Shown here: piece by piece, positions 53-29,494 of the stretch | Layout: each line of letters begins with the position of its first letter | How positions within the stretch are numbered: position 1 is the first letter of the stretch | NCBI GenBank assembly: GCA_943354165.1 | Contig: CALRBH010000001.1 | Coordinates: 80,828 to 144,827, forward strand | Direction: 5' to 3' | DNA: 64,000 nucleotides | Source of the DNA: Candidatus Uhrbacteria bacterium RIFOXYB12_FULL_58_10 | Lineage (GTDB): Bacteria > Patescibacteriota > Patescibacteriia > UBA9934 > GWF2-40-263 | The notes under the pieces: model-generated | The model's input: the letters and a program-made list of their open reading frames with translations, nothing else | The model's database searches: none | Told to the model about the DNA's origin: nothing | Translations under genes and position numbers: made by a program

Positions 53-1468
53 ATGTTAAGGAGGAGTACAGACAAGCGCACCAAAATCGTGTGCACGGTT
101 GGGCCTACCTCGGCGGATCCGCGCATTCTTACGCGCATGGTCATGGCCGGGATGAACGTGGCGCGCCTCAACTTTTCTCATGGCACACATGCAAGCCATC
201 AAGCCGTCTTGAAGACCGTGCGGAGCGTGGAGCGCAAAACGAAACAAGTGATCGCCGTCCTTGCAGACTTGCAGGGTCCGAAGATTCGGTTGGGTGAACT
301 TCCGGCGGACGGGGTGGATATTCATACGGGGAGGGAAGTTGTATTTTCAACCGCCTCAAGTGTCTACAAGTCCGGACTCCTTCCGGTAACTTACGCTGGG
401 CTTCATAAAGACGTTAAGGTGGGAGATCGGATTCTCATCGATGACGGGCTGCTCGAAGTGAAGGTGCTGGCCGTACATGGAACGTCCATACGCGCCAAGG
501 TGATAAACGGCGGGCACGTCTCGTCTCACAAGGGGATGAACTTTCCGGACTCCACACTGCGGGTTCCTGCGCTCACGGCGAAGGATCGCGCGGACGCAAA
601 GTTTGCCGTGAAGGCGGGCGTGGAATACATCGCGCTTTCGTTTGTCACCAGCGCAAAGGACATTCGCACCTTGCGCGGGATCATTCAGGCGGCCGCATCG
701 AGAGGAACGGTGCTTCCTCGCATCATCGTGAAGATCGAAAAGCACGAGGCGATCACGCGGTTCCTTGAAATCCTTGCGGAGACGGATGCCGTGATGATTG
801 CACGCGGAGACCTTGGTGTAGAAATTCCCGCCGCGGAAGTTCCGGTGAAGCAGAAGGAAATGATTATGCTGTGCCGGCTCGCGGGCAAACCCGTTGTCGT
901 GGCTACGCAGATGCTCGACTCCATGATCCGCAATCCTCGCCCCACGCGCGCGGAAGTTTCGGACGTCGCGAACGCGGTGTTCGATCATACAGATGCCGTG
1001 ATGCTTTCTGGCGAAACTGCGTCTGGAAAATATCCCGTTGAGGCGGTCACGGCGATGGCGAACATTATTCGTGAAGCCGAACAGTCATCGTTCGATGATA
1101 TCCATTTACCAACCCTCATCTCCGGACGCCCCGAAGCCGCCATCGCCCAAGCGATTAAACTTCTTGCGGATGCGGGGGAGATTCAAGCGGTGGCTGCGCA
1201 TGGAGACCTGACCCCTTGGGCGGAAACACTCCTCAGCGATCGTCCAGAAATTCCATTTGTCTTTGCCTCAAGCGATACGTGCCACTTGCGACAGTCCCAT
1301 CTGCGATGGGGTGTGCATCCAGTGCTGCTTGCCTCCTCCGCATCCAGTACACTTGGACGACATCTTCTTGAGCGTCTGCATGCCAATACCAGCCTTCCTA
1401 AGGGCGCGCGCGTCGCCCTGATCCTTGGCGGGGTGCACGGCTCCGGATTCGACGTAGTTTCGTTGTAG
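53..1468 (+). CDS. pyk: pyruvate kinase
   Basis: TKIVCTVGP, RLNFSHG, DLQGPKIR, KIEK, MIARGDLGVE, ATQMLDSM, RPTRAEVSDVANA and VMLSGETA motifs. Confidence 0.97.
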   Translation: MLRRSTDKRTKIVCTVGPTSADPRILTRMVMAGMNVARLNFSHGTHASHQAVLKTVRSVERKTKQVIAVLADLQGPKIRLGELPADGVDIHTGREVVFSTASSVYKSGLLPVTYAGLHKDVKVGDRILIDDGLLEVKVLAVHGTSIRAKVINGGHVSSHKGMNFPDSTLRVPALTAKDRADAKFAVKAGVEYIALSFVTSAKDIRTLRGIIQAAASRGTVLPRIIVKIEKHEAITRFLEILAETDAVMIARGDLGVEIPAAEVPVKQKEMIMLCRLAGKPVVVATQMLDSMIRNPRPTRAEVSDVANAVFDHTDAVMLSGETASGKYPVEAVTAMANIIREAEQSSFDDIHLPTLISGRPEAAIAQAIKLLADAGEIQAVAAHGDLTPWAETLLSDRPEIPFVFASSDTCHLRQSHLRWGVHPVLLASSASSTLGRHLLERLHANTSLPKGARVALILGGVHGSGFDVVSL

Positions 1469-1705: not shown

Positions 1706-2305
1706 CTAGTCGATGGTCGGGTCGTTGTAGTCGCCATCAGGCATGGGTTCTTCCACGAAAGGTTTGATCTGTGTGGTCACGAGCTTGCCGCCAACGAGCT
1801 GCAGCGTACCGGCCTGTATGAGCTTGCCGCCGCAGTCGTAGATCAGCTGTCCGTTTTCATGGTGCGGCTTGCCGCGCTCCAGGTGCAACGTGCATGGTGT
1901 CGCCGTCGCCTTCACGCGTTTTTGGGCGATCTCGATGGGTTGCGCGTTCGCGGAGGAGAGGCCGAACCCGCCGATGAGCATGGCCGCAAGGACGGGGCCA
2001 ACGGCCTTCTTCATCCAGCTGAAGGACCAACCTGACCAGATCGAAGGCTCTTCGTAGACCAAATCCTCGACGAAGTCCATGGGCGGCGGAGCGGTCACAA
2101 CTGCGGGCGCTGCCTTCGGAACCGTGATGGGTTTGGGCTTCTCATTTTTCTTTGCGTTCTCGGCACGAACCTTTGCCTTCACGGACTTGGGCTGGTAGAG
2201 CCACATCACTGACATGTCGATCAGCGTGCCTTTATCGGTGAAGACGTCGGTGTTTCTTGGATGCGGTGCGTTCGCTTCTTTGTACCATCCTTCAAATGTC
2301 TGCAT
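1706..2305 (-). CDS. hypothetical protein with internal signal-peptide/TM-like segment
   Basis: 199-aa ORF with AAAGGA SD, upstream TTGACA-17-TATGTT promoter (2381-2353) and downstream terminator; contains MKKAVGPVLAAMLIGGFGLSSANA. Confidence 0.7.
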   Translation of the reverse strand: MQTFEGWYKEANAPHPRNTDVFTDKGTLIDMSVMWLYQPKSVKAKVRAENAKKNEKPKPITVPKAAPAVVTAPPPMDFVEDLVYEEPSIWSGWSFSWMKKAVGPVLAAMLIGGFGLSSANAQPIEIAQKRVKATATPCTLHLERGKPHHENGQLIYDCGGKLIQAGTLQLVGGKLVTTQIKPFVEEPMPDGDYNDPTID

Positions 2306-2460: not shown

Positions 2461-4149
2461 CTAGTTCTGACTCACCACGATCTTCACGATGCGCATGCCC
2501 TCACACAAGGGCTTGCCGTCTGCGTTCACCTTCGCGATCACGGTATTCTCGGTCTCCGAGGGGCAGGAGAAGAACACTCCACCACTCGTGAGCCGTCGGC
2601 CGCGCTGTTCCTTGCCGTACAACGCGTACGTGCACCCTTCGATGACCTCGGGTGTCGACGCGATGACTGGAGCCACAGGTGCCACCACCGGAGTGGGGAC
2701 AGGAGCGACTGGTGGCGTGACCACAGGGACGACCGGCGTCACCACTGGGGTTACGACAGGCTGTACCACTGGCGTCACGACGGCCACTTGTGTCGCCGGT
2801 TGCCGGAAGTGATTGACAAAGAGCCCAATCCCCACCAACAATAGGACCAGCACGGCCGCGATGGCCCCGAGCACCGGCCACGGCGAACCTTCATTTTTCT
2901 TCTCGTCTTTCTTCGGTCCGTCCGTTCCGGAGGTGCCCTTGTTGAGCGGCGACTTCGGAGCGGCGGTCGTAGGGACGTTGAACAGCTTCGGTGCCGGTTG
3001 CGGCTTCGGAGGTTGGGGAAGGTCTGCTTCCTTTTCCTCTGGCACCGGCGGAGGCACCGGAGCTTGCGTCGGCGCCACCGCCTCGGCAACGAAGGCTGCA
3101 GTTTGCGCGCTGACCGTCTCTTCTTCCATGAGCTCAGCCAGTGCCTGTTTGGTCAGGGCTTCGTCCTCGAGACGTTTGTTTTCCGTCGCGATCCGAACTT
3201 CCTCGGCCCCTTCGGCCATCAGATGAGCCACTTCCTGCGGAGGAAGCGCCTCCTCCTGCTTGCGTGCGGCCTCGGCGGATTCCTTCTCCCACTTCTTGTG
3301 CAGCTCCGCCTCGATGCGCTGCTTCTCCTCCGTCACCTTCAGGCGTTCGTCTTTGAGACGCTGTGCTTCGGCTTCATCCAATGCGGCTTGCAGCCGATTG
3401 GCCTCCGCCAGATCAGATGCGGCCTTGTTGGCTTGCACCTGCGCCTTGATCTGTGCGATCTCAGCTTCGGCCCTTGCGGGCTTCTCCTTGGTGGCTTCGG
3501 TGGCAGTGATACCCCCTATCTCGTCCTCGTCCGTCACTGGCGCTTTCGTCGTCGGCGGGGGCATTGGAGCCCCTCCGGCGCCTTTCATTGTGGCCTCGGG
3601 CTTCTGTTTTCTCGGCAGGAGATCCGTTGGAATGTCCTTTTGAGGATCCAGATGCCTTAGCGGCGGCACCTCCGTCGGCAACGGCCTGTCCATGGGCTGC
3701 TTGGCCATATTCACATTCCCGTTCGAGAACACGTCGCCGTCGCTCGTGGGTTCTCCTGTGAGCCCCTCCGGCTGCGGCGTGTCCACCGCGGTGTTCGGCG
3801 GCAACCGCGGAATCTGCCAGAGTTTCTTCATGAAGCGTTTCGTATCCGCCGGCTTGATCTCGATGTGTGTCACTTCTGGATCATAGATCGGAATGCGGAC
3901 CATAACGCTGCCGTCCTTCTGCTTGATTCCGGTGTATTGATTGGTGTCGTGCTCGAGCAGTTCATCGTCGAACATCGTACTTCCGACAATAACCTCGATC
4001 TCTTCCATGTCCGTTGGAGTTCCTCCGAAGGAGAACCTGACGACGCGGATGAACTGCTTGTCATTTCCCCTGAGGCCGTCCACGTGCTCGTGGGTGATCT
4101 CGGGGGCGTTGGGCAGGGTGACGGGGAACTCTTGCTTCTCACTATTCAT
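2461..4149 (-). CDS. hypothetical single-pass membrane protein (Pro-rich, coiled coil, C-terminal TM, PVV repeats, small Cys domain)
   Basis: Long ORF; start moved to ATG at 4149, which has a GGAGG SD; TM WPVLGAIAAVLVLLLVGIGLFV. Confidence 0.8.
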   Translation of the reverse strand: MNSEKQEFPVTLPNAPEITHEHVDGLRGNDKQFIRVVRFSFGGTPTDMEEIEVIVGSTMFDDELLEHDTNQYTGIKQKDGSVMVRIPIYDPEVTHIEIKPADTKRFMKKLWQIPRLPPNTAVDTPQPEGLTGEPTSDGDVFSNGNVNMAKQPMDRPLPTEVPPLRHLDPQKDIPTDLLPRKQKPEATMKGAGGAPMPPPTTKAPVTDEDEIGGITATEATKEKPARAEAEIAQIKAQVQANKAASDLAEANRLQAALDEAEAQRLKDERLKVTEEKQRIEAELHKKWEKESAEAARKQEEALPPQEVAHLMAEGAEEVRIATENKRLEDEALTKQALAELMEEETVSAQTAAFVAEAVAPTQAPVPPPVPEEKEADLPQPPKPQPAPKLFNVPTTAAPKSPLNKGTSGTDGPKKDEKKNEGSPWPVLGAIAAVLVLLLVGIGLFVNHFRQPATQVAVVTPVVQPVVTPVVTPVVPVVTPPVAPVPTPVVAPVAPVIASTPEVIEGCTYALYGKEQRGRRLTSGGVFFSCPSETENTVIAKVNADGKPLCEGMRIVKIVVSQN

Positions 4150-4354: not shown

Positions 4355-4702
4355 TTAAGCTTTTACGCTCTTTACCACCGCTTCGAATACAGAGGCGTGG
4401 TCCTTCGCGATGAAGGAGAGCACCTTGCGGTCCAAAGACACGTTGTGTGCCTTGAGGGCGCCGATAAAGCGGGAGTAGGACATGCCGAGTGGACGCAGGG
4501 CGGCGTTGAGCCGAACCGTGAACAGGGCACGCATATCACGCTTTACGAGACGGCGGTCGCGGTAAGCGTACTTACCAGCCTTGAGCTCCGCGGTCTTTGC
4601 GAGCTTGATCTTTGATTTTCGGCCCCACATCATGCCTTTCGTCTTTGCAAGGAGATTCTTGCGACGCTTGGCATGCATGACACCGCGTTTAACGCGTGGC
4701 AT
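4355..4702 (-). CDS. rplT: 50S ribosomal protein L20
   Basis: MPRVKRG...YAYRDRR..KRDMRALF..RLNAA...SYSRFI...LDRKVLS. Confidence 0.98.
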   Translation of the reverse strand: MPRVKRGVMHAKRRKNLLAKTKGMMWGRKSKIKLAKTAELKAGKYAYRDRRLVKRDMRALFTVRLNAALRPLGMSYSRFIGALKAHNVSLDRKVLSFIAKDHASVFEAVVKSVKA

Positions 4703-4711
4703 AGAAGTTTT

Positions 4712-4915
4712 TTATGTACCTGCGTAAGGAAGAAGGGTCTGGAAGGCCTCCGCGTGCGCATTGTTCAGGGTCTGATCGCGGCGCTTTTTGCGGGTGATTT
4801 TTCCAGAATCTCGGCTGTTAAAATGGCCCTGTCCAGCATGACGCTTAAGGACTTTGCCGTTCTTGGTCACCTTTACGCGCTTTGCGAGCGCTTTGTGCGT
4901 CTTGAGCTTCGGCAT
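4712..4915 (-). CDS. rpmI: 50S ribosomal protein L35
   Basis: MPKLKTHKALAKRVKVTKNGK; lies between infC and rplT. Confidence 0.97.
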   Translation of the reverse strand: MPKLKTHKALAKRVKVTKNGKVLKRHAGQGHFNSRDSGKITRKKRRDQTLNNAHAEAFQTLLPYAGT

Positions 4916-4974
4916 AACGGGTTCGGTAAGAAGTGCGGGGAGTGTAAGGAATCGGCTGATATCCGTCAAGATAC

Positions 4975-5526
4975 TTAGATGCGGCCTACGATGGCGGTCA
5001 TTCGGCCGGCCATATAGGTGATTTCCTGCTCGGTACGGATGGGGAAGTCGGTTTTCAGGAGTTCCATGAACTTGATGGCGACTTCGCGGGCGATCTCCTG
5101 GTGGCCCTTTTCACGGCCACGGAGCACGAGCTCGATCTTGACCTTATCCCCACGCTCGAGGAATTTCTTGGCCTGTTGATGGCGGACTTCAAGGTCGTGA
5201 TCTCCGATGCGGAGGGAAAGGCGGATCCCCTTGACCTCGACTTCATGCGATTGGGCCTTTTGTTTGCGGGCTTCCTTTTCCTTCTGGTATTTGAACTGGC
5301 CGAAGTTGAGGAGCTTGCAGACCGGCGGGTTTCCCTTAGGAGAGACTTCCACCAGGTCCGATTCTTTGCTGAGCGCAAGCGCGATGGCGTCCGCGGTCGT
5401 CATGACTCCAAGTGGTTCACCTTCAAGCCCAATAACGCGAACCTCAGGGACGAGGATCATTTCATTGGCCTTGTAGCTCGGAACCTCAAATTTGGGTTTC
5501 CGAACCCGGTGTCGATGAATACGCAT
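4975..5526 (-). CDS. infC: translation initiation factor IF-3
   Basis: EVRVIG, DLVEVSP..PPVCKL, KFLERGDKVKI.LRGRE; start uncertain, ATG at 5526 chosen. Confidence 0.95.
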   Translation of the reverse strand: MRIHRHRVRKPKFEVPSYKANEMILVPEVRVIGLEGEPLGVMTTADAIALALSKESDLVEVSPKGNPPVCKLLNFGQFKYQKEKEARKQKAQSHEVEVKGIRLSLRIGDHDLEVRHQQAKKFLERGDKVKIELVLRGREKGHQEIAREVAIKFMELLKTDFPIRTEQEITYMAGRMTAIVGRI

Positions 5527-6030: not shown

Positions 6031-6115
6031 TTAGTAGTTAGTAGATAGTAGTTAGTAGAGTTGGTTGGAAAATTTTCCTACTTACTACTAACTACTTACT
6101 ACTAACTGCTAACGC
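6026..6115. repeat. inverted heptamer tandem arrays, empty element
   Basis: Units GTAGTTA GTAGTTA GTAGATA GTAGTTA GTAG (6027-6058); central palindrome GGAAAATTTTCC; units TTACTAC TAACTAC TTACTAC TAACTGC (6082-6109). Confidence 0.95.
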
Positions 6116-6127
6116 AGTTAGTCATAT

Positions 6128-6528
6128 GGGGCTGATCGGCTTCGCCGGCAGCCTGTTTCCGTCTAAGCAAGCCGAGGGTGTACTGAACCTCGTAAATCCT
6201 CTGTGCAAAGAAGTCATTTGCCAACCTCTTCTCACAAGTGAAGAGCGCGATCGCTTCGGCGTTCCGCGTTCCGACACTTGCCATGGTTACCGCCTAAGGG
6301 CTTGTAACCCATCCGTCCTGCTGGTTCGTAAGCGGGGTCGCGGGTGTTATATCTACGGACTCTCCTTGATGGACTACCGGTCTTCAGCAAGGGAATTGGC
6401 GGCCGGTCCGTCTGCAGGTATTTCGTTCTGTTTGACCCTGCAGCCGCGTAAATCTAACAGAACTTCGCTTGGAGAAAGGATTGGGGACAGTTGACCAGAC
6501 GGGGGTTCGATTCCCCCCAGCTCCACCA
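6128..6528 (+). ncRNA. ssrA: tmRNA
   Basis: 5' GGGGCTG pairs with 3' CAGCTCC-ACCA (G3.U alanine identity); T-arm GGGGGTTCGATTCCCCC; tag frame 6220-6297; directly after smpB. Confidence 0.95.
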
Positions 6529-10590: not shown

Positions 10591-11232
10591 ATGTCACAGC
10601 CTTCGTACGGAGTCGTGCTTGCGAACCGATGGAAATCGCTCGCGGCGTTTACTCTCCTCGGTCTCGTTCTCTCCTTGCTGGTTTCGTTTATCCAGCCGCT
10701 CAAGTATTCCTCGACCGTTCGGCTTCTGGTACGTCAGGACATCGGTTCCTCAGATGCCTACACAGCCAGTCGGAGTGAGGAACGCATCGCGGAAAACCTT
10801 ACGAACATTCTTTATACCACCACGTTTTTTGACGATGTCTTGAACGCCGGGTTCACCATCGATGAACGGACGTTTCCGGCCGAGGATTACAAGCGACGCA
10901 AGGAATGGGGAAGGACGGTTTCCGCCACGGTGGCGCGCGGATCCGGCCTCATGACCGTCGTGGCCTATCATCCGGATGTGAAGCAGGCCGAGCAGATTGC
11001 CCGCGCCGTGGCGTTTGTCTTCACTCAGAAGGCCAAGGACTACACCAGTGCGGCCGGGGTGGACGTGCGGTTGATCGATGCGCCGTTGAATTCCAATTGG
11101 CCGGTGAAGCCTAATTTGCTCGCAAATGGTTTGTCCGGTCTGGTCCTGGGCGGTCTGTTTGGGGTGGCCTACCTGCTATTGCAGGCAGAGCGGATTCGCC
11201 GCCGCCATCAATTGGTTCACGAGGAATTTTAA
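10591..11232 (+). CDS. Wzz/YveK-like polysaccharide co-polymerase
   Basis: N-terminal TM followed by PLKYSSTVRLLV; C-terminal PVKPN and Gly-rich TM. Confidence 0.85.
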   Translation: MSQPSYGVVLANRWKSLAAFTLLGLVLSLLVSFIQPLKYSSTVRLLVRQDIGSSDAYTASRSEERIAENLTNILYTTTFFDDVLNAGFTIDERTFPAEDYKRRKEWGRTVSATVARGSGLMTVVAYHPDVKQAEQIARAVAFVFTQKAKDYTSAAGVDVRLIDAPLNSNWPVKPNLLANGLSGLVLGGLFGVAYLLLQAERIRRRHQLVHEEF

Positions 11233-11308
11233 AAACCCTATTCCGTTAGAGAACGGTCTGATATCATAGCGCGCGTCCCATCCCGGGACGCGCGTTTTTG
11301 GAGGAATC

Positions 11309-11890
11309 ATGCAGCTGATCAATGTGTATCTAGCGATGCTGCTCGCGGCGGCTCCGGTCGCAGCGCAGTACACAGAACTCGCTCCGTTTCTTGGAGTGGG
11401 GACAAGTTTCGTCAGCGTCCCGTTTGAGACTCAGATTGGTGCGCCGGAATGGCAGACAGGTGAAAGGAGCTTTACCGGAGGTGTTACTTTTTCTACCGGA
11501 ATTGATCACACCTTTGGACGACTCGGAGTTCATCTTGATTTCGGACCGCGCGCTACGTTCTTTCCAGAAGAAGGGATGATGATGGGGGTTTTGGTCACCG
11601 GCTGCGTGGACGCGCTTTTCCGTCCGACCCACCATCTGCTGATCGGTCCATCCTTCTGTGTCGAAACCCACGAACCGCTTTGGTACGGTGGGGAAGCGCA
11701 ACGTACGATTTATGGAATGGGCGGGGTTGGGCTGGTCGTTCCGTTCCTGTTGGGCGATGAGACCGAACTGGCTCCTCACGTCTTTCTCGGTATTGCGCCC
11801 GTCTCAGGCGAAGATTCGATGCGTCTTGTTCCGTCCGTTCTGTTAGGGATAGATCTGGAGGTCTTGTTTTCACCGGCATTCCATCCGTAA
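11309..11890 (+). CDS. secreted hypothetical protein, beta-barrel-like
   Basis: GGAGGA SD (11300-11305); signal peptide ending PVAA; amphipathic Gly/aromatic-rich strands. Confidence 0.7.
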   Translation: MQLINVYLAMLLAAAPVAAQYTELAPFLGVGTSFVSVPFETQIGAPEWQTGERSFTGGVTFSTGIDHTFGRLGVHLDFGPRATFFPEEGMMMGVLVTGCVDALFRPTHHLLIGPSFCVETHEPLWYGGEAQRTIYGMGGVGLVVPFLLGDETELAPHVFLGIAPVSGEDSMRLVPSVLLGIDLEVLFSPAFHP

Positions 11891-11950
11891 GGCAAAGGCA
11901 ACCGTTGGAGGTCGTAGACCGCTCTTGGGGCGGTTTTATTCTATCTATAA

Positions 11951-12044
11951 GCAAAAAATCCACTGGGGCGGCTTGGCCTGGCAAGTCAGAGCGAGGAGGA
12001 GACGCCATGACCGCTGTACCAAGCCGACTCAACGGACTTTTGAT
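11951..12044 (-). ncRNA. candidate small RNA hairpin with UCUCCUCCU loop
   Basis: Minus-strand TTGACC(12079-12074)-17-TAGGGT promoter; long stem whose G.U pairs form only on the minus strand; ends in U6. Confidence 0.5.
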
Positions 12045-12103
12045 GTGCGAACCCTATCAACCTGGCTGTGCGGGGTCAAGAAATTCGTGGCTGTCATGGG
12101 GGA

Positions 12104-12132
12104 TTGACAAAACGGCCAGTTTCTGTTATATT
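12104..12132 (+). promoter_or_regulatory. sigma70-type promoter
   Basis: TTGACA-17 bp-TATATT with extended TG. Confidence 0.8.
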
Positions 12133-12445
12133 GCCGGGTCGATCGATCACTCAAATAGCCAATACATCACGCCAAACCGCGCGATTTCAGGCGGTTCGGC
12201 AGAGCACATAGCATCTCCTCCTTGCTATGGGCGCTGTCGGACCACTCGAGTTCACGCGGCCAGCGCGCAGACGCCCTTATCCACAGGGACCCTGCGCGCT
12301 GGTCACGTTGGACCCAATGGTCCTTACAAACGTGTCCTTACAGAGTACCAGCCGTAGGAAGAACGAGCCCAAGGCATTCCGCCAAAAAGCTCACCCTCTT
12401 CCGCGCGCTGTGCCGGAAGGAGAACAAATGCAACAGGAGAGTCCC

Positions 12446-13540
12446 ATGAAAACGAGCATCGTTTCCGTGTTCATCATCACTATGATCGGCTTCGCCTTCC
12501 CGGCCTTTGCGGACGTCTCGTCCACGGATGCCGGCGTCGCCGCGGCACCGGTCCTGTTCGATGAGATCCCCGACATGTGCCTCGCTGACTGCACGCAGGC
12601 CTATCAAACGGCCAACGACGCGTGCCTCAAGCAGTTCAACAACTGCGTGACCGAAGAGCAGGTCCGCGTGGACCCGCCCAAGGTCACTCCCGAGAAGTCC
12701 AAGAAGCCCAAGGCTCCGGAGGCCCCCAAGGCCTCGAAGCAAAAGGTGGAGAACTTCCGGGAGGCGCTCAAGGAACTCGAAAAGCGCACGGAGGACGGGT
12801 TCACCTCCAATGACGAGAAGCTCAAGAAGGTCAAAGAGACCATCAAGCTTCTCGACGATCGCGTCGGCAAGGTCGAAGACCGTGTCGGCAAGGTCGAAGA
12901 GGTCATCAAGAATCTTGTAGGTCGAGCCGACAAGGTCGGCGTCATGGGAATTATTGGGTTCGAAGCCTGCCTGGGCTCCACCCGCCAGGTGGACCTCACC
13001 GATCTGCGGCAGATCGATCAGAATGGGAATAACGTCGGCAACGACGGCACGCTCAAACTGCAAGATCCGGGCGCGGCATGCGTTCGTCCTGTGCTCGGGT
13101 TCGGTCTCCAAAACAAATACATGGTGCTGAAGATCTCGGGCAGCCCGTTTGGCGTCACCTTTGGCTCCGCGCAGGCGTCCAATGGAGATCCCTCGCAGGT
13201 CATCGGCTACGCTCCCAGCGTCGCCGGCGAGTTCCTGGGCTTCGTGACTCCCGACCTCGCGCTTGGAGTGTACGGCCAGTACATGTTCAACAAGGTTGGT
13301 GCACTGCCCAGTGGGAAAGCCTCGCTGGACGCGCAGACCTTCACAGGCGGCCTCGCGGCGGACTGGACCTTCCTGCGATTCGGATCGACGGCGCTCGCGC
13401 TCTCGGCTCGCGTCGGCGGCGGGTACGGTCATCTGTCGACTCGGCTCCCGACCGGCAAGGACAAGTGGTGGCCCGCGCTCGCGCTCGACGGCCAAGCCGG
13501 TGTGACCATGCGGTTCAACCCCTTCCAGGCCGCGGAATGA
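12446..13540 (+). CDS. secreted protein: Cys motif, coiled coil, C-terminal beta-barrel-like domain
   Basis: AGGAGA SD (alternative in-frame ATG at 12428 also has an SD); signal peptide ending PAFA; DRVGKVE tandem; amphipathic strands ending GVTMRFNPF. Confidence 0.8.
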   Translation: MKTSIVSVFIITMIGFAFPAFADVSSTDAGVAAAPVLFDEIPDMCLADCTQAYQTANDACLKQFNNCVTEEQVRVDPPKVTPEKSKKPKAPEAPKASKQKVENFREALKELEKRTEDGFTSNDEKLKKVKETIKLLDDRVGKVEDRVGKVEEVIKNLVGRADKVGVMGIIGFEACLGSTRQVDLTDLRQIDQNGNNVGNDGTLKLQDPGAACVRPVLGFGLQNKYMVLKISGSPFGVTFGSAQASNGDPSQVIGYAPSVAGEFLGFVTPDLALGVYGQYMFNKVGALPSGKASLDAQTFTGGLAADWTFLRFGSTALALSARVGGGYGHLSTRLPTGKDKWWPALALDGQAGVTMRFNPFQAAE

Positions 13541-13557
13541 AGTAGGACACGACTACG

Positions 13558-13601
13558 GTGTGGGGAGGGAGCAGGATTTAATCCTGTCTCTCTCCCCACA
13601 T
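13558..13601. terminator. long hairpin after the 12446 gene
   Basis: GTGTGGGGAGGGAG CAGGATT / AATCCTG TCTCTCTCCCCACAT; no clear U-tract. Confidence 0.5.
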
Positions 13602-13731
13602 TCTCTCTCTAAAGCCAGATACGTATGCGGACGAATTTTTCGCCCGCAGACGACCCCGGCTTTCCCGCCTCGTAGGAGGCAAGCCATCCGCCTCTCAAGA
13701 GGCTTGTCAGCAACCCCAGCAGGAGACAGAC

Positions 13732-14760
13732 ATGAACAACGTCAGCAAGTTCCTTTTCATCGCGGCCCTCGTGGCCATCACCTTCAACACGGTCGGCTGC
13801 GAGCCGGCCCAGGCGTCTGGCGCAAACGTCGTCGTGGACGGCGCCGCTGAATGCGAGAACAACGTCGATTGCACTGGCGATGAGGTCTGCACCGACGCAA
13901 CGTGCGTCGATCCCGACACCATCGAGTGCCGTCTCAACAGCGACTGCAACGACGACGACAAGGTCTGCACCGACGCGAAGTGCGTCGACAAGGACCCCCC
14001 GTCCAACGTCGGCTGCACGAACAACGACGGCTGCGAGTTCGACGAGGTGTGCACCAACGGCACCTGCGAAGAGCTCGATTGTGAAGTTGACGAGTGCGCG
14101 GCGGACCACGAGTGCGTGGACCTCCCGCCGGTCAGCGACTGCACGCTCAACAGCGCGTGCGGCGACGCCCAGCAGTGCACCAACGGCCAGTGCGTCAACA
14201 CGTCTTGTCCCTCGGGTCAGCACGCGGTGAACCACAATGAGTGCGTGAACGACACGCCCTCCGGCCAATGCACGCTGAACTCGCAATGCAGCAACGGCCA
14301 GGTGTGCACGAACGGTCAGTGCGTCGGCGGCAACCCGGTCAATCCCGGACCCACGCGCACGGAGCGGTTGTGCCAGAACGCCCCCTCGGGCAAGACGGTG
14401 AACGGTGACCTTACGGGTCGTTCGTTCGCCACCGACGGTGTCACGCTCTTGCAGAGCTCGTTCGCGAACGTCGCAGTGAATGCGGCGCGAACGCAGATCT
14501 GCGGTGACATCACGGTCCAGACCGGCGGGTTCCTTGAACACAACGTCACGTTCATCCCCACCGGCTTCACGGGATACGTGGCGTTCAACCAGAACTCGCA
14601 GAGCTGCCAGATCACGGCGGGTGCGTCATCGGCTCTCGGTGCGCGCTCCTTGTCCCCGGTCGCGATCCCGTGGCACTGTTCCGGACTGGGCTCGTGCAGC
14701 AACGCTGTGCCCGCAAGCAACGAAGGTTGCGATGCGCGCAGCAGCGTCCCGGCTCCTTAG
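13732..14760 (+). CDS. Cys-rich repeat lipoprotein (myxobacteria-like)
   Basis: AGGAGA SD; lipobox TVG-C; repeated C-x4-[D/A/Q]C-x4-C-x4-C modules. Confidence 0.85.
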   Translation: MNNVSKFLFIAALVAITFNTVGCEPAQASGANVVVDGAAECENNVDCTGDEVCTDATCVDPDTIECRLNSDCNDDDKVCTDAKCVDKDPPSNVGCTNNDGCEFDEVCTNGTCEELDCEVDECAADHECVDLPPVSDCTLNSACGDAQQCTNGQCVNTSCPSGQHAVNHNECVNDTPSGQCTLNSQCSNGQVCTNGQCVGGNPVNPGPTRTERLCQNAPSGKTVNGDLTGRSFATDGVTLLQSSFANVAVNAARTQICGDITVQTGGFLEHNVTFIPTGFTGYVAFNQNSQSCQITAGASSALGARSLSPVAIPWHCSGLGSCSNAVPASNEGCDARSSVPAP

Positions 14761-14776
14761 CTGGAAGTACGATACT

Positions 14777-14814
14777 AACCCCCATCACATCTGTGAGTGG
14801 GGGTTTCGTCTTTT
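14777..14814 (+). terminator. intrinsic terminator
   Basis: AACCCCCATCACA-TC-TGTGAGTGGGGGTT, then TCGTCTTTT. Confidence 0.65.
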
Positions 14815-14981
14815 CTGGAGCCGCATGTTCGATTGACAAAAGTCCTTTTTCTTGGTAGAAAAGAACGTTAGTATTTCACTAAGGATCGCGCGCTGATGTG
14901 GGTAGGGAATCCACACCAGGTCACGATCTTTAAACCCATACTTGTATCCTGCCGATCTGGGGCAGGGTACGGAGGTGATCC

Positions 14982-15758
14982 ATGCCGCGTTGGTTAAAAG
15001 CCTTGTTGCTGTCGTGTGTTCCGTTTGCCAAGTCCTGCAGCCTGCTCCTGCCCGCGACCGGATGCTCGCTCTGTGCCGTAGCATCCCAATGCTATGACGA
15101 CGTCGATTGCTCTCCGGGATCTGTGTGCGAGGAGGGGGCCTGTATTTCGAGCGGGACTACCATCGACGAGCCCGATGCCGGACCTGATCCTGGTGAAGGT
15201 GAAGGCGAGGGAGAGGGCGAAGGCGAGGGTGAAGGAGAGGGAGAAGGAGAAGGTGAGGGTGAAGGAGAACCTGATGAGGATGGGGATGGAAATCCCAATT
15301 CTACGGACCCTGCGGTGTTGCGTGATACGAATGCCAACACCAGACCAGATACTCTGTGTATCCTTTCGAGCCAGGTGATGCCGGAGCCGTGGGCAAATGA
15401 TGACGTGTTCCTTCAAATCCAGGGAGGCAGCTTCAATGATTTCGACACCATGACGCTTGGTGCAGAGATCCAAATTGAGCAGTTTGGCCCTGGACTTGGT
15501 TGGTGTCCGGACCTGAGTGGGTTCCCAGATGGAGATTATTTTATCCGGTTCGTGGCTGTTGAGGGGATCGATCAGACTTCTCTGCAGAGCGGATATGTGT
15601 GTTCCAGGGCTGTCATCAGCGACTTTGATGCGGCCTGTACTGGGGCAAATCCCGACCTTCTTTGCGGGTTCCTCTCGCGACAGGATAACTGCGGTGGATT
15701 CGTGGGAAATCTTATTCACGTAACCGTCACTGCAGCCTTTGGGGTGGAACCTGGCTAG
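14982..15758 (+). CDS. secreted Cys-containing protein with (Gly-Glu)n linker
   Basis: GGAGGTGA SD (14971-14978); upstream TTGACA at 14833; CYDDVDCSPGSVCEEGAC module; about 13 GE dipeptides. Confidence 0.8.
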   Translation: MPRWLKALLLSCVPFAKSCSLLLPATGCSLCAVASQCYDDVDCSPGSVCEEGACISSGTTIDEPDAGPDPGEGEGEGEGEGEGEGEGEGEGEGEGEPDEDGDGNPNSTDPAVLRDTNANTRPDTLCILSSQVMPEPWANDDVFLQIQGGSFNDFDTMTLGAEIQIEQFGPGLGWCPDLSGFPDGDYFIRFVAVEGIDQTSLQSGYVCSRAVISDFDAACTGANPDLLCGFLSRQDNCGGFVGNLIHVTVTAAFGVEPG

Positions 15759-15978
15759 ACAGCACGTTTCTCTAAGCGAGCCTTGACAATATCGGTAAAA
15801 TCCGGTAGAAATCAAGGTCCGTATTTTTCTTTATACCGTCCAATTTCGTGCTTTGTCTTCGGCATAGGAGGGTCGTGGACTGGGACATGAAACTTTCACA
15901 AGCGTGCTCGTACACGCATCCCCGTCCGCTACCAGTAGCGAGGAGACCAACCATGAAGCAGAGAAAGAGGAGGAGACC

Positions 15979-18330
15979 ATGAGAAGTTTGTTTTTGCTGG
16001 TTTTGTTTGCCATGATGCCCGCCTGCGTCGGCTGCGACGACGGGGATGGCATTCCCACCGAGGACGACTGCGATCCGGAGACGTCGGGTGACAATCAGGT
16101 CATCTCACTCTGCGGATGTCCGGACAACCCTGCCAGCCCTCCGGGCTGTGCGGATAATTCGGGCGAAGGCGAAGGTGAGGGCGACGGTGAAGAAGGCGAA
16201 GGCGAAGGTGAGCCGCTGCAGGAGTGTGTGCTCAACACCGAATGCGACGACGGCGAAGAGTGCACCGATGGAGAGTGCATCCAGATTCCTGTGGAGCCAG
16301 TGTGTACGCCCGGCGAACGCCGGGTATGCAATACGGGTCTCGACGGCGTCTGCATCTTCGGCAGCCAGCGATGCAAGGAGGATGGATCGGACTTCGACAC
16401 ATGCGAAGTCGAGACGTCTCCTGGCGAGCTCGATGAAGTCTGTTTTGATGGCATCGACCAGGACTGCGACGGTCGCATCGACAATGGATGCGCCTGTCCG
16501 GCTGGAGAAGAAGCTGACTGTGTCCTCCCTGCGCTCGACGGCGAATGTCGCCGCGGACGTATGGTGTGCCTACCGGACGGCTCCGAGTTCGGCGAGTGCG
16601 AGCAGGTCACCTTCTTTCAAGAAGAGATCTGCTTAAACGGGTTTGATGAGACGTGCGATGGCACAGCCGACGAAAACTGCGTGTGCTTCCCTGGGCAAAC
16701 CCAGCCGTGCAATTCAGGGTTTGAAGGCGTGTGTGCCGCGGGCGTCCAAACGTGTTTGCCGGATGGTCTGGGGTTTGACTCCTGCCAACCGCTGATCGCG
16801 CCGTTTACGGAACCTGAGACTTGCGAGAACGGGGTCGATGAGGACTGCGACGGTCGTCCGGATTCCGGATGTACCTGTTCGCCTGATGAACGGGCCCTCT
16901 GTGTCGTAGTGAGCGAGGTCGGACCGTGTTCTGTTGGAGAGGCAGTATGTCTTCCCGACGGAAACGGCTTCGGCGCCTGCGTCCAGACGGTACTGCCCGC
17001 CGCAACGGATTCCTGCTTCAACCTGCGGGATGACGACTGCGACGGCACGGTGAACAACGGCTGCGCGTGTGAGGCAGGAACCAGCATCGTCTGCGACACA
17101 GCCCTCGAAGGGATCTGTGCCTCGGGCCTGCAAACCTGTCTTGCGGACGGCTCCGGGTTCGACATCTGTCGTCCCGTGATCCTTCCGTTCGCACAAGCTG
17201 ATACCTGTGGCAACGGCGTCGACGAGGACTGCGACGGGCTCCCGGACAACGGGTGCACCTGCGATCCCGGTGATCAAGTCGACTGCGTTGTGACGGGGCT
17301 CGAGGGCGCATGCAAGATCGGGAAGGCGACCTGTCCTTCTGACGGCAACGCGTTCGGTGCCTGTACACAGACGGTCTTCCCGGCGGCGCAGGATACCTGC
17401 ATCAATGGGATCGACGACGACTGCGATGCGGCGACGGATGAAACGTGCGTCTGCCAGCCGTTCACGTCCCGTCCTTGCGCCACTGGCTTGCCAGGGGTCT
17501 GCAATGGCGGAAGCGAAACGTGCCGCGCCGACGGAACTGGATTCAACGTGTGTCAGGTGCTCATCATTCCCGGAACCCAGGCGGAAACCTGTGGCAACGG
17601 GCTGGATGATAACTGCAACACGGCGGTTGATGACGGGTGCGTAGTGGGTGCGGGCGTCCCTGGGACGCTGGCCTTTGATGACGATGGTGACTGCGAGTGT
17701 GAGATCGTCGCAGGCATCTGCTCGGGGTCTATCAACCCCGTGTGCACGGCGGTTACGGCAGATGACTGCGATGACGCTGCGAGAGTCAAAAGCTCGCTCG
17801 CCAACGAAGTCTGCGGTGGTACGGAGGACTTCGACTGCGATGGCTCGATCGGTGCCGCCGATCCGGACAGCGTGGCGCAGTGTGTAGGAACAATCAGCGT
17901 GAGTTTCGCGGCAGGGAACTTCACAGCCGTGATGAACGGCAATGTGACGGGAACAACCTTGAGCGAGATGACGACAGGCGCGGCTACGCTTCTTGGAAAC
18001 GTTCTGTTCCTTGAAGTCGGTGCCAACTCCGCCGGCTGCAGCTTTGATGCGACGAGTTCGTGTGGGCAAGTGGCCTTCGATCCCCTCACGGATAACTTCG
18101 TCAACAAGGCTCTGGTGTTCGCTGGAGCGATCGGTATTCCGACAGACTTCACTCCGCGGGTGCAGACGAACCAGACGGTGGTGACTCCAGGTACAGGAGT
18201 CGTGGTGCCTGAAGGAGCGTTCATTGATCTCGCCCGTTGGGGGGTGATCAATGGAGCAGGAGGCAAAACCTGTGCCGTATTGCCCGGTGGTCCACTGGGT
18301 GCGGCTCTGACCACACACTGCACGCCGTAG
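15979..18330 (+). CDS. large Cys/Asp-rich repeat lipoprotein (MopE-like metal-binding DxDCDG repeats)
   Basis: AGGAGGAGA SD; signal ending PACVG-C; GE linker; about 7 repeats of ~64 aa containing C.NG.D.DCDG..D.GC. Confidence 0.9.
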   Translation: MRSLFLLVLFAMMPACVGCDDGDGIPTEDDCDPETSGDNQVISLCGCPDNPASPPGCADNSGEGEGEGDGEEGEGEGEPLQECVLNTECDDGEECTDGECIQIPVEPVCTPGERRVCNTGLDGVCIFGSQRCKEDGSDFDTCEVETSPGELDEVCFDGIDQDCDGRIDNGCACPAGEEADCVLPALDGECRRGRMVCLPDGSEFGECEQVTFFQEEICLNGFDETCDGTADENCVCFPGQTQPCNSGFEGVCAAGVQTCLPDGLGFDSCQPLIAPFTEPETCENGVDEDCDGRPDSGCTCSPDERALCVVVSEVGPCSVGEAVCLPDGNGFGACVQTVLPAATDSCFNLRDDDCDGTVNNGCACEAGTSIVCDTALEGICASGLQTCLADGSGFDICRPVILPFAQADTCGNGVDEDCDGLPDNGCTCDPGDQVDCVVTGLEGACKIGKATCPSDGNAFGACTQTVFPAAQDTCINGIDDDCDAATDETCVCQPFTSRPCATGLPGVCNGGSETCRADGTGFNVCQVLIIPGTQAETCGNGLDDNCNTAVDDGCVVGAGVPGTLAFDDDGDCECEIVAGICSGSINPVCTAVTADDCDDAARVKSSLANEVCGGTEDFDCDGSIGAADPDSVAQCVGTISVSFAAGNFTAVMNGNVTGTTLSEMTTGAATLLGNVLFLEVGANSAGCSFDATSSCGQVAFDPLTDNFVNKALVFAGAIGIPTDFTPRVQTNQTVVTPGTGVVVPEGAFIDLARWGVINGAGGKTCAVLPGGPLGAALTTHCTP

Positions 18331-18433
18331 TGGTGCAGTTGGGATGATGTCCTAGTTACTTCTGCCGGCGGCCGCGATCTCCTCTCTGAGGAATCGCGAC
18401 CGTCGGTCTTTTATTTGGTACACTATGAGCGTT

Positions 18434-19975
18434 ATGTTGGACCTGCAGGCGATGTATGGCCTTACGGAGGAGCGGTCAAAGGGATTGATGGTGGTGCTCG
18501 CCATCTCGTTTGTTGTTCTCATCGGCTCCATGTCGTTTCTTTCGCCGGTAGCGGTGGTGGCCGGGGTGATTGGCGTTCTGCTGCTCGCTCTCACGATTGT
18601 GCGACCGCTCTGGACGCTGAGCCTACTCGCCCTCTACCTTCCGTTCGAGCCGTTTCTGCTCAAGTTTGCGCCGGACGAAGTGTATACGTTTGCCCGGTTC
18701 GGTTCCGAAGGACTCATCTATATTCTTGGGGGGCTCGTGATCGCGCGTATCCTCATGGGGCGTACGTCGAACGTTCAGACGCCTATCAGTCTTCCGTTCG
18801 TCCTGTTCTGCGTTGTTCTCGGCGCGTCCGCGCTTATCAATGCCGTGCCTCCGAGCATCGCCGTACTCGGCATCAGACAGATCATCAGGTTCATCCTGGT
18901 ATTCTTTATCGTCGTACAGCTCGCGCCGTCCAAGTCTTACATTTCAAAACTGACGATCGCACTGTTTGGGATTGCGGCGTTCGAAAGTTTGCTGGCGTTC
19001 GCCCAGCTCGTCATTGGTGCGCCGCTCGACACATTCCTCCTGCCGTCGGACACGCGCGCGATCGGCGACGTTGCCGTTACGGCCGGGACGACCCAGTTCT
19101 GGGACCCGGGCTCGCGCACGTTCGGGACGCTCGGTCGGTATGATCGGCTCGGAAACTTTCTGTTCATGATGCTGTTGTTCGGCGTCGGCTTCCTCACGCA
19201 GCAGGGGAAGCGCGCGATCTCTTTGTCCCGTAATCAACTTCTTTGGCTGTTCGCCCTCGGGTTACCTGCGCTCCTCATGACGTTCTCGCGCGCATCTTGG
19301 TTCGCCTTTCTCTTCGGCTTCCTTTTCATCATGGTGGTGCTGCTGCGCGATAAACGCGTGATGGCGGCGTTCGGGATTTGTGGGGTCCTTGCGGGAGCGT
19401 ACGTGGGATTGTCCGGGCTTAATGTACGGTTCATTACGGAAGCGCCGGGGCAGACCCTCATCGAGCGGTTTTACGAAACGTTCAGCTATGCGCGATGGCG
19501 CGGGGAATATTACGGACTCGGCCGCGTGTTTTGGTTCGTGCAAACCGTGTCAGTTGTCGTCCCCGCTGCGCCGATCTTTGGCTGGGGGCCTGGGCAGTAC
19601 GGGGCAGGGGCCGCGACCACGCTCGTGAATACGCGCGTGTATGACGCGCTCGGCTTGCCGTTCGGGGTCTATGGAACCGATGGGTATATCGATAACAACT
19701 GGTTCTCCTTATGGGGGGAAGCCGGAACGCTCGGACTCGCGTTTTTCCTCTGGATGTACATCGGACTATTTGTGTACGTATGGCGAGGATATCGCCGGAG
19801 TTCCGATGGGTTCACACGCGGGTTGTGCGCGGGGTATCTCGCCCTGCAAATCGGCGTCGCGTTCGCGGCGTTCCTTGCGACATCGTTCGAGACAAGAACG
19901 GTCGGGTACTACTTGTGGATGTATGCCGGGTTCCTCGTGGTGCTGCTTGAGCGTGAACGTCGTACGCCCGTATGA
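18434..19975 (+). CDS. O-antigen ligase/Wzy_C family membrane protein
   Basis: RTFGTLG, LMTFSRASW, PIFGWGPG, IDNNW.SLWGEAGTLG; start is 18425 or 18434. Confidence 0.85.
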   Translation: MLDLQAMYGLTEERSKGLMVVLAISFVVLIGSMSFLSPVAVVAGVIGVLLLALTIVRPLWTLSLLALYLPFEPFLLKFAPDEVYTFARFGSEGLIYILGGLVIARILMGRTSNVQTPISLPFVLFCVVLGASALINAVPPSIAVLGIRQIIRFILVFFIVVQLAPSKSYISKLTIALFGIAAFESLLAFAQLVIGAPLDTFLLPSDTRAIGDVAVTAGTTQFWDPGSRTFGTLGRYDRLGNFLFMMLLFGVGFLTQQGKRAISLSRNQLLWLFALGLPALLMTFSRASWFAFLFGFLFIMVVLLRDKRVMAAFGICGVLAGAYVGLSGLNVRFITEAPGQTLIERFYETFSYARWRGEYYGLGRVFWFVQTVSVVVPAAPIFGWGPGQYGAGAATTLVNTRVYDALGLPFGVYGTDGYIDNNWFSLWGEAGTLGLAFFLWMYIGLFVYVWRGYRRSSDGFTRGLCAGYLALQIGVAFAAFLATSFETRTVGYYLWMYAGFLVVLLERERRTPV

Positions 19976-28989: not shown

Positions 28990-29235
28990 ATGGTAAAGCA
29001 AAAACTTTCAGCCAAAGTGGATCGTAAAACGATTATCCACGCCGTTGACCAACTCTCTCCAGATCGTGCGAGGATCGCGGTGGATTTTTTGGAGTTTCTC
29101 CATCAGAAAGATGCTGAATGGGATGCAACTACAGAACTCCTTTCGGATAAAAAGTTGATGAGCGATATCGCCACCGCAAGAAGGGATGTGGCAAAAGGAA
29201 TCGGACTCTCGTCTTGGCGCAAAACATCTGCGTAA
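28990..29235 (+). CDS. putative type II antitoxin
   Basis: 81 aa; EWDATTELLSDKKLMSDIATARRDV resembles antitoxin C-termini; 1 nt upstream of a RelE-like gene. Confidence 0.75.
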   Translation: MVKQKLSAKVDRKTIIHAVDQLSPDRARIAVDFLEFLHQKDAEWDATTELLSDKKLMSDIATARRDVAKGIGLSSWRKTSA

Positions 29236-29236
29236 T

Positions 29237-29494
29237 ATGTTCGAGGTCCAGCTTCATATAAAAGCCAGGAAATCATATGAACGGCTTCCAAAACAGGCCG
29301 TTCTTCTTGTTGATCGCGGATTTGCTCTTCTTGAGTCGGATCCGTTTTCCGGGCCACAGATTAAACGTCTGCACGGTCCACTTGCCGGGCTATATCGTTT
29401 ACGGGCTGGAAGATATCGTATTGTTTATCAGATCATAAATGATCATCAAATAGTCGTAGTTCTTGTCATTGGCTCAAGAGAGAGTGTGTATTAA
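29237..29494 (+). CDS. RelE/ParE family toxin
   Basis: IKRLHG..LYRLRAGRYRIVY.I...VVVLVIGSRESVY. Confidence 0.92.
   Translation: MFEVQLHIKARKSYERLPKQAVLLVDRGFALLESDPFSGPQIKRLHGPLAGLYRLRAGRYRIVYQIINDHQIVVVLVIGSRESVY

Follow-up and report, generated by a model that had tools for sequence, protein, structure and literature searches.

The 64,000-nucleotide window analysed here is part of the 164-kb contig C1 of genome G000, an assembly of 852,500 bases in 24 contigs (98.4% complete, 0.09% contaminated) from what is likely a tiny, symbiotic, Uhrbacteria-like member of the Patescibacteria. We investigated a class of genes in this genome that are led by a Shine-Dalgarno (SD) sequence, whereas the core genes carry no SD and have a T directly before ATG, U(-1) in the mRNA. 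In the window this class is represented by a five-gene block in a slot between a wzz-like and an O-antigen-ligase-like gene, and by two genes behind rplT.

Start signals were compared between G000, G003 from the same family (a whole genome, 47% GC) and G024 from another family of the same order (1,000,000 of 1,002,985 bases, 45% GC); triple figures below refer to these genomes in that order. G001 (272 kb) was left out of the class counts as too partial. The genus of G000 contains G000 alone, so that no close-pair comparison was possible. Genes were called with our own codon model without an SD term (850 genes in G000), and the same caller was applied to G003 and G024, with 20-kb stretches handled separately. 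Core genes were those with a BLAST match in both other genomes and orphans those with a match in neither, excluding proteins shorter than 60 aa. A strict SD was defined as GGAG or GAGG within positions -14 to -4 plus a pairing energy of -6 or lower against the 16S tail.

SD-led cassettes in the window

The first-pass annotation of the window had described seven accessory genes with a purine motif and a C directly before ATG. We confirmed both features in all seven, with pairing energies against the G000 16S tail of -8.1 (2305), -9.3 (4149), -9.3 (11309), -7.4 (12446), -7.4 (13732), -14.9 (14982) and -11.9 (15979). Gene 2305 passes by energy but its motif, AAAGGA, fails the strict criterion. 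Five of the seven lie within 11300-18330, where all had been placed, while 2305 and 4149 are located behind rplT. The core genes named in contrast (pyk, rplT, rpmI, rpmB, HU and 24898) indeed lacked an SD (energies -3.9 to +3.0) and showed T at -1. The same holds at -1 for smpB if its start is 5590, which agrees with the starts of relatives, although our gene caller picked 5551. The "S-layer" label of 24898 found no Pfam or NCBIfam match. Across the window, T was at -1 in 40/51 non-SD genes; one core gene, 49856, had an SD, at a doubtful start. The genes and signals concerned are as follows (GC3, GC content at third codon positions).

53..1468, + strand: pyk, core contrast; -10-like box TATACT 9 nt before ATG
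1706..2305, - strand: SD-led orphan; AAAGGA, C at -1, GC3 0.75; no Pfam or NCBIfam match
2381-2353 and 1687-1662, - strand: promoter-like site and terminator-like hairpin flanking gene 2305
2461..4149, - strand: SD-led orphan behind rplT; GGAGG, C at -1, GC3 0.73
4301-4273 and 2442-2407, - strand: promoter-like site and terminator-like hairpin flanking gene 4149
4355..5526, - strand: infC-rpmI-rplT, core contrast; no SD, T at -1, TAA stops
10591..11232, + strand: wzz-like core gene, left slot border
11309..11890, + strand: SD-led 193-aa orphan with signal-like N-terminus; GGAGGA; terminator-like hairpin at 11916-11936
12104..12132, + strand: sigma-70 consensus promoter-like site ahead of 12446; TTGACA-17-TATATT, 11/12 positions
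12446..13540, + strand: SD-led 364-aa protein; signal-like N-terminus, Cys pair, Pro/Lys linker, coiled coil, barrel-like C-terminus
13732..14760, + strand: SD-led Cys-rich predicted lipoprotein; DUF7107/EB-like repeats, weak sub-cut-off Myxo_Cys_RPT match; GC3 0.85
14982..15758, + strand: SD-led Cys-rich protein with Gly-Glu tract; SD GGAGGTGA, energy -14.9; TTGACA-17-TAGAAA upstream at 14833
15979..18330, + strand: SD-led 783-aa predicted lipoprotein; Cu-binding_MopE (PF11617) repeats, Myxococcota-like; TTGACA-17-TAGAAA upstream at 15783
18425..19975, + strand: O-antigen-ligase-like core gene, right slot border; no SD, T at -1

With its -10-like box only 9 nt from ATG, pyk is likely near-leaderless. 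SD-type genes were also present behind rplT in G003 and G024.

Start signals, codon use and cargo by gene class

Scored genome-wide, SD use differed sharply between gene classes in all three genomes, and the similar use across classes that the first-pass annotation had allowed for did not occur. In G000, a strict SD preceded 62/218 orphan, 8/157 intermediate and 13/449 core genes (orphan versus core odds ratio 13, p 3e-21, with SD-blind starts). The orphan and core counts were 137/397 and 8/445 in G003, and 47/287 and 10/442 in G024. Compared with the SD rate at internal ATGs, 4.2/2.9/3.9% (123/2934 in G000), core genes are at or below chance. Allowing alternative starts barely shifted the G000 counts (15/449 core and 68/218 orphan genes), and GGAG peaked sharply at positions -10/-9 (51/847 starts in G000). 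The SD class comprises about 1/12 of G000 genes, with approximately 70 non-core members, and accessory SD-led genes number 54-152 per genome across the three.

The base directly before the start codon was divided in the same way, with T at -1 in 76/81/80% of core genes and C in 60/65/37% of non-core SD genes. The C at -1 in SD genes (40/67 and 93/144) compares with 22-27% C at positions -5 to -2. Orphans with an SD had U(-1) in 6/60, 9/129 and 10/43 cases, versus 81/145, 135/244 and 139/229 for orphans without; SD and U(-1) are mutually exclusive among orphans. Ribosomal-protein genes of G000, picked by reading sequences, had T(-1) in 31/32 cases, and a strict SD was found on 0/32, 1/31 and 1/31 ribosomal-protein genes in the three genomes. 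We rejected the idea that the SD merely reflects first-in-operon position, since the split stays among genes with an upstream gap of at least 80 nt (SD in orphan versus core genes, 48/127 vs 4/178, 90/214 vs 3/162 and 36/144 vs 2/147). A -10-like box 5-11 nt ahead of ATG was present at 29/214 core and 0/58 SD genes, the leaders of core genes being at times nearly absent, a full -35/-10 site at 26/58 SD versus 43/214 core genes, and a terminator at 35/58 SD versus 77/220 comparison genes. The split is real, order-wide and under selection.

GC3 was 0.69/0.57/0.67 for SD genes against 0.65/0.46/0.43 for core genes. The values for ribosomal-protein genes, 0.65/0.41/0.41, are not raised, so the GC3 of the SD class is not the organism's own high-expression optimum. 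For this reason, and because SDs are nearly absent from ribosomal-protein genes, we also rejected the proposal that the SD marks high expression. Orphans with U(-1) had a GC3 below core (0.60/0.42/0.39), and codon use in the SD class shifts away from that of ribosomal-protein genes and toward that of Myxococcota loci. Predicted lipoproteins differed as well. A G-x-G-C lipobox, a pattern chosen post hoc and scored with a crude lipobox rule, was present in 22/31 non-SD versus 3/27 SD-led predicted lipoproteins, and in 4/84 from non-Patescibacteria loci; two of the three SD-led genes with this native form had T(-1). The exact GAGC lipobox, set in advance, occurred in 14/31 versus 2/27 (p 0.0025). 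Most SD-led predicted lipoproteins had a canonical lipobox instead. The expression signals of the class hence differ from the carrier's own in SD, -1 base, GC3 and lipobox.

Most SD-led genes had no Pfam match. Judged by language-model features, 11309 (0.95) and the C-terminus of 12446 (0.94) resembled outer-membrane barrels, although 4-10 of 100 shuffled proteins also scored 0.9; a search of solved structures matched only coiled coils and designed proteins, and no Omp85/BamA match was found in G000. Annotated SD-led products were PyrB, a uridine-kinase-like protein, a 2OG-Fe oxygenase and a second RpoD-like sigma factor in G000; kinases, PP2C phosphatases, NAD-salvage enzymes, PurA and an RNA-polymerase alpha C-terminal domain in G003 (150/152 genes scanned); and PyrF and a PRPP (phosphoribosyl pyrophosphate)-synthetase-like protein in G024. 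The SD-led pyrB (G000 C17:3778-4806, L269) belongs to a gene found in 27/132 genomes of the order, and searches of G000 gave no match for PyrD or carbamoyl-phosphate synthase. The second sigma factor (299 aa, C7:28421-29320, L250:798-1694) is 37% identical to the nearby native RpoD on C7, which has T at -1. An SD-led 662-aa protein (G000 C9:13840-15828, L254) gave a weak match to a Cas12f1/TnpB-like zinc finger, and an IF-1-like identity considered for C6:17071-17433 received no support from Pfam. We also observed in G003 (L189:6028-13802) an SD-led cluster with an OmpA-domain protein, a vWA protein and lipoproteins with host-style lipoboxes.

Age of the slot and a retroelement target as internal control

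The slot between the wzz-like and O-antigen-ligase-like genes is filled in both relatives. In G003 it holds five GC-rich genes (GC3 0.72-0.85) with an SD flagged in 4/5, and in G024 eight called open reading frames, seven with GC3 0.71-0.93 and four with a strict SD at the called start. The content in both is mostly Cys-rich predicted lipoproteins. Genes of 12446-like architecture, read by eye, come first in the slot of both G003 and G024, with no BLAST match, and the alignment of the three slot proteins was poor. The MopE motif of 15979 was detected in 121/132 genomes of the order, 59/59 of the family and 0/14 controls. We found no homologue of 11309, one unnamed homologue of 12446 at 34% identity and, as the best match of 15979, a Myxococcales protein at 38% over most of its length. 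The slot filled in relatives, the order-wide motif and the absence of a close donor indicate that this "island" is an old, fast-diverging slot rather than a fresh import or a misassembly. Of the features expected of a recent island, it has the atypical composition (GC3 and SD compared with core genes); it is not absent from relatives and no close donor was found. Recent transfer from an SD-using donor, one of two explanations offered in the first-pass annotation, thus fails for the slot and for the retroelement target described below, which supports the other, selective retention of the SD.

One SD-led gene of G000 (C15:9486-10289) is the target of a diversity-generating retroelement (DGR), and belongs to a family present in 37/132 genomes. 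The locus contains a reverse transcriptase (RT), an avd remnant, a template repeat (TR) and a target without Pfam domain, and in this resembles the clade-2 Patescibacteria DGRs (PMC8144416), whose targets are reported to lack membrane anchors. RT and Avd were identified by reading sequences, without a profile scan, and avd in G000 was called just as a 58-aa piece. Mismatches between the TR and the variable repeat fell at A in 26/27 cases in G000 and in all cases at four other loci (5/5 loci tested). Taking the ATG nearest the expected start, 30 target loci had a strict SD in 20 cases, a looser SD in 3 and none in 7, whereas RT starts had a strict SD in 0/10. Target GC3 with the variable region removed averaged 0.85, versus 0.42 for RT and 0.43 for Avd, and the direction was the same in 11/11 loci with RT in view, although kin are not independent. 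Codon use is thus native in the part of the cassette that works on symbiont DNA, but not in the target. The clade-2 account (PMC8144416), in its available part, does not comment on this difference in SD and GC3 between the target and the native-style RT and Avd.

At four-fold sites, targets were identical at 51/88 positions between two genomes of one family and at about 40-50% between most families. Synonymous change between targets is largely saturated, and yet they keep their SD and a high GC3. Only 4 of 32 matches to the target were taxon-named homologues, all Patescibacteria and one of them Ca. Uhrbacteria. The targets of G023 and G041, from different families, were 94% identical, which indicates that cassettes also move between Patescibacteria. 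A leader, GGAGGGCTA(T/C)TCC, upstream of the targets was common to six genomes of three families (L277, L279-L282, L288); from its sequence, it could fold back onto the target's own SD.

Which ribosomes read the SD class

We propose that SD-class mRNAs may be intended for a host cell that is GC-richer, has a double membrane and would translate them on its own ribosomes, a reading to which we give a probability of roughly 0.4. Translation and processing in such a host would explain the SD, the loss of U(-1), the GC3, the lipobox and the cargo by one cause; indirect support comes from the lipobox split, from GC3 and from barrel-like cargo in a genome with no BamA match. Symbiont RNA polymerase would transcribe the cassettes, and their RNA (or DNA) would cross a contact site into the host. 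Host translation would follow, with the host's Sec, Lgt and Bam machinery installing lipoproteins and barrel-like proteins in its envelope, and cytoplasmic members (the second RpoD-like sigma factor, the lone PyrB and the DGR variable protein) could act on host physiology. Patescibacteria themselves have been described as monoderm (PMC11665869), and conduits at the contact site are documented for another Patescibacterium (PMC11880426). Initiation at core genes would depend on U(-1) pairing with A37 of the initiator tRNA, as established in E. coli (PMC10018350); the initiator tRNA of G024 has CAU then A37, and that of G000 was not found in the assembly. Should bS21 normally blind symbiont ribosomes, the symbiont itself would translate SD genes lacking U(-1) poorly, so that the rpsU signal described below can be read either way. 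From the sequence comparisons, the SD-led class is an old feature of the order, likely kept by selection because host ribosomes would translate its mRNAs. The fuller scenario is more doubtful: Uhrbacteria-like Patescibacteria might reprogramme a bacterial host by passing it mRNA from 50-150 chromosomal cassettes poorly read by their own U-AUG ribosomes, the products in the double-membrane host being outer-membrane proteins, lipoproteins, a sigma factor, metabolic enzymes and a hypermutated binding protein.

Several observations weigh against translation by a host. The 16S 3' tail of G000, GAUCACCUCCUUU, has an intact canonical anti-SD; the internal frameshift SD of prfB was kept in 2/2 sites found (three genomes examined); and rpsU had GGTG 4-12 nt upstream in 15/34 genomes and 5/14 genera. 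With these sites at prfB and rpsU, the symbiont's own ribosome is probably able to pair with SDs, and the premise that it cannot read them was not borne out. G000 encodes LspA and Lgt. Structure prediction did not confirm a barrel for 11309 (pLDDT, predicted local distance difference test score, 34) or the 12446 C-terminus (28), neither protein had a Pfam match, and a regular-expression screen for barrel C-termini returned no SD-class match. G024 has pyrD also, in native style, and the SD class includes plain mobile-type genes (Cas12f/TnpB-like, AbiEii-like). A shift to TGA stops in the SD class was strong in G000 (38/70 vs 78/438) and absent in G003. Outside the DGR family and the slot, SD retention between homologues, by automatic calls that miss starts, was 9/29 within and 6/23 between genomes, against a background of 16-31%. 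Where a spacer separates two SD genes its GC content was higher (0.52/0.47/0.45 vs 0.47/0.41/0.40), as an imported origin would predict; an intergenic-GC argument that had looked strong on a first comparison (0.395 vs 0.398 in G024) weakened once only these SD-SD spacers were taken. The post hoc lipobox pattern counts on the same side, and we found no precedent in print for mRNA delivery between bacteria.

The class could instead be a regulon for those of the symbiont's own ribosomes that have a free anti-SD, for example bS21-less ones as in Flavobacterium, perhaps in one life stage, with the proteins placed on the symbiont surface or exported to the host. We regard this as possible but doubtful. 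In Bacteroidia the anti-SD is sequestered by bS21, bS18 and bS6, and an SD-led rpsU is read by bS21-less ribosomes (PMC7797042, PMC9976891), a mechanism demonstrated in F. johnsoniae (PMC9976891). Here too the anti-SD is kept (CCUCC is present in most relatives' 16S tails), core genes have no SD, rpsU is often an exception, compared with the near absence of SDs on other ribosomal-protein genes (scored by a different criterion), and the prfB SD is retained, although prfB SDs are described as unrelated to genome-wide SD use (PMC10798248). bS21, Lgt and LspA are all encoded. SD use at or below chance, a Bacteroidia trait, is true of the G000 core and untrue of its orphans. Unlike Bacteroidia, these genomes have 54-152 SD-led accessory genes with codon and lipobox habits of their own, and a core that uses U(-1). 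The Tyr54 signature of bS21 described for Bacteroidia (PMC7797042) was not seen by eye: the position 12 residues after the S42-equivalent is Leu, Leu and Met, with a shared Tyr 8 residues further. The rpsU of G000 itself has no GGTG, and rpsR has no SD in G000 and G024. A regulon of this kind also does not explain why GC3 values of about 0.85 and 0.42 adjoin within a single cassette, nor does it explain the excess of C(-1) or the lipobox split.

Rolling import would need no special ribosome: donors that use SDs and have about 55-60% GC would repeatedly supply moron-like cassettes to hot-spot slots, where the donor signals last until they are lost. We consider it unlikely to explain the class as a whole, and likely to account for part of it. 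Orphans make up 62/70 non-core SD genes and often have a promoter and terminator of their own, at the frequencies given above; the GC-richer spacers, the background-level SD retention between homologues, the Myxococcota relatives of 15979 and the movement of DGR targets between families all fit import. However, no gene tested has a close donor, the MopE motif is near-universal in the order, U(-1) orphans are lower in GC3 than core rather than higher, and the DGR target family, with only Patescibacteria names, stays GC-rich and SD-led through synonymous turnover beside an AT-rich RT and Avd. Chimeric assembly, contamination or biased start calls are very improbable. The bin has 24 contigs and its starts come from our own caller, but contamination is minimal, the caller is blind to SDs, other starts barely change the counts, and the island lies between core genes inside a 164-kb contig, with the same slot in two other genomes, one of them single-contig.

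A variant 16S tail, CAUCUCC, was found under the pattern used in one of 162 genomes of the order (G022 C3:133744-133762). The counts of GGAGGT versus GGAGAT before CATG were 12 vs 8 in this one informative genome, and 34/13, 13/11, 10/18 and 8/5 in four others. In G008 we observed two different 16S tails. The rpsU gene (G000 C1:59340 and relatives) had a GTG start in 23 of the 34 genomes where it was found, and bS21 ends in a shared R-E-Y motif.

Relation to known systems

Horizontally acquired islands and phage "morons" are self-contained promoter-SD-gene-terminator units of atypical composition between core genes. The present case is unlike them: both the slot and its protein motif extend across the order, searches gave no close donor, and the foreign style of a Patescibacteria DGR target has outlasted the saturation of synonymous sites. 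Agrobacterium T-DNA genes and wasp polydnavirus genes are inherited in one genome and have expression signals for another cell. Under the host-ribosome explanation, SD-class genes would likewise be inherited with signals for another cell. Unlike those systems, they are scattered single cassettes without noticeable borders or excision sites, both partners would be bacteria, and the transfer is a proposed one. What we describe is a variant of one of two known phenomena, either translation that makes little use of SDs although the anti-SD is retained, or the maintenance of genes to be expressed in another cell.

A search of the literature that did not include most subscription papers found no published description of an SD split in Patescibacteria. 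The available main text of PMC10798248 does not name Patescibacteria, and its supplementary table of 4362 genomes may hold SD values; PMC10746230 has no passage on SD in the candidate phyla radiation. PMC6107228 and PMC6851277, the latter with matching terms in its references only, offered nothing on the split. The role of the type IV secretion system of Patescibacteria is described as unknown, and translation control is expected to matter (PMC11665869). It is an open question by what means these bacteria affect their hosts and, for most of them, what those hosts are. Under any reading, the SD/U(-1) split is a marker of a functional gene class that can be read from sequence, and it allows the ribosome in use to be tested directly. 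Should the host be the reader, one bacterium would be passing gene expression to another, and effectors could be listed straight from the class; in that case a gene's SD, GC3 and lipobox would identify it as an effector and indicate the host from sequence alone. mRNA delivery between bacteria, if true, would be categorically new. If the symbiont's own ribosomes read it, this would be a specialised-ribosome regulon far larger than the single-gene Flavobacterium case.

Further observations were made in passing. All 32 ribosomal-protein genes of G000 end in TAA, compared with 212/421 other core genes. In the window, Rfam identified a tmRNA at 6128-6528 that ARAGORN missed, and an AT-rich hairpin of short repeats lies between smpB and this tmRNA (6031-6115). 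A ParE-family toxin gene with an upstream small open reading frame at 29186-29494 is a probable type II toxin-antitoxin pair.

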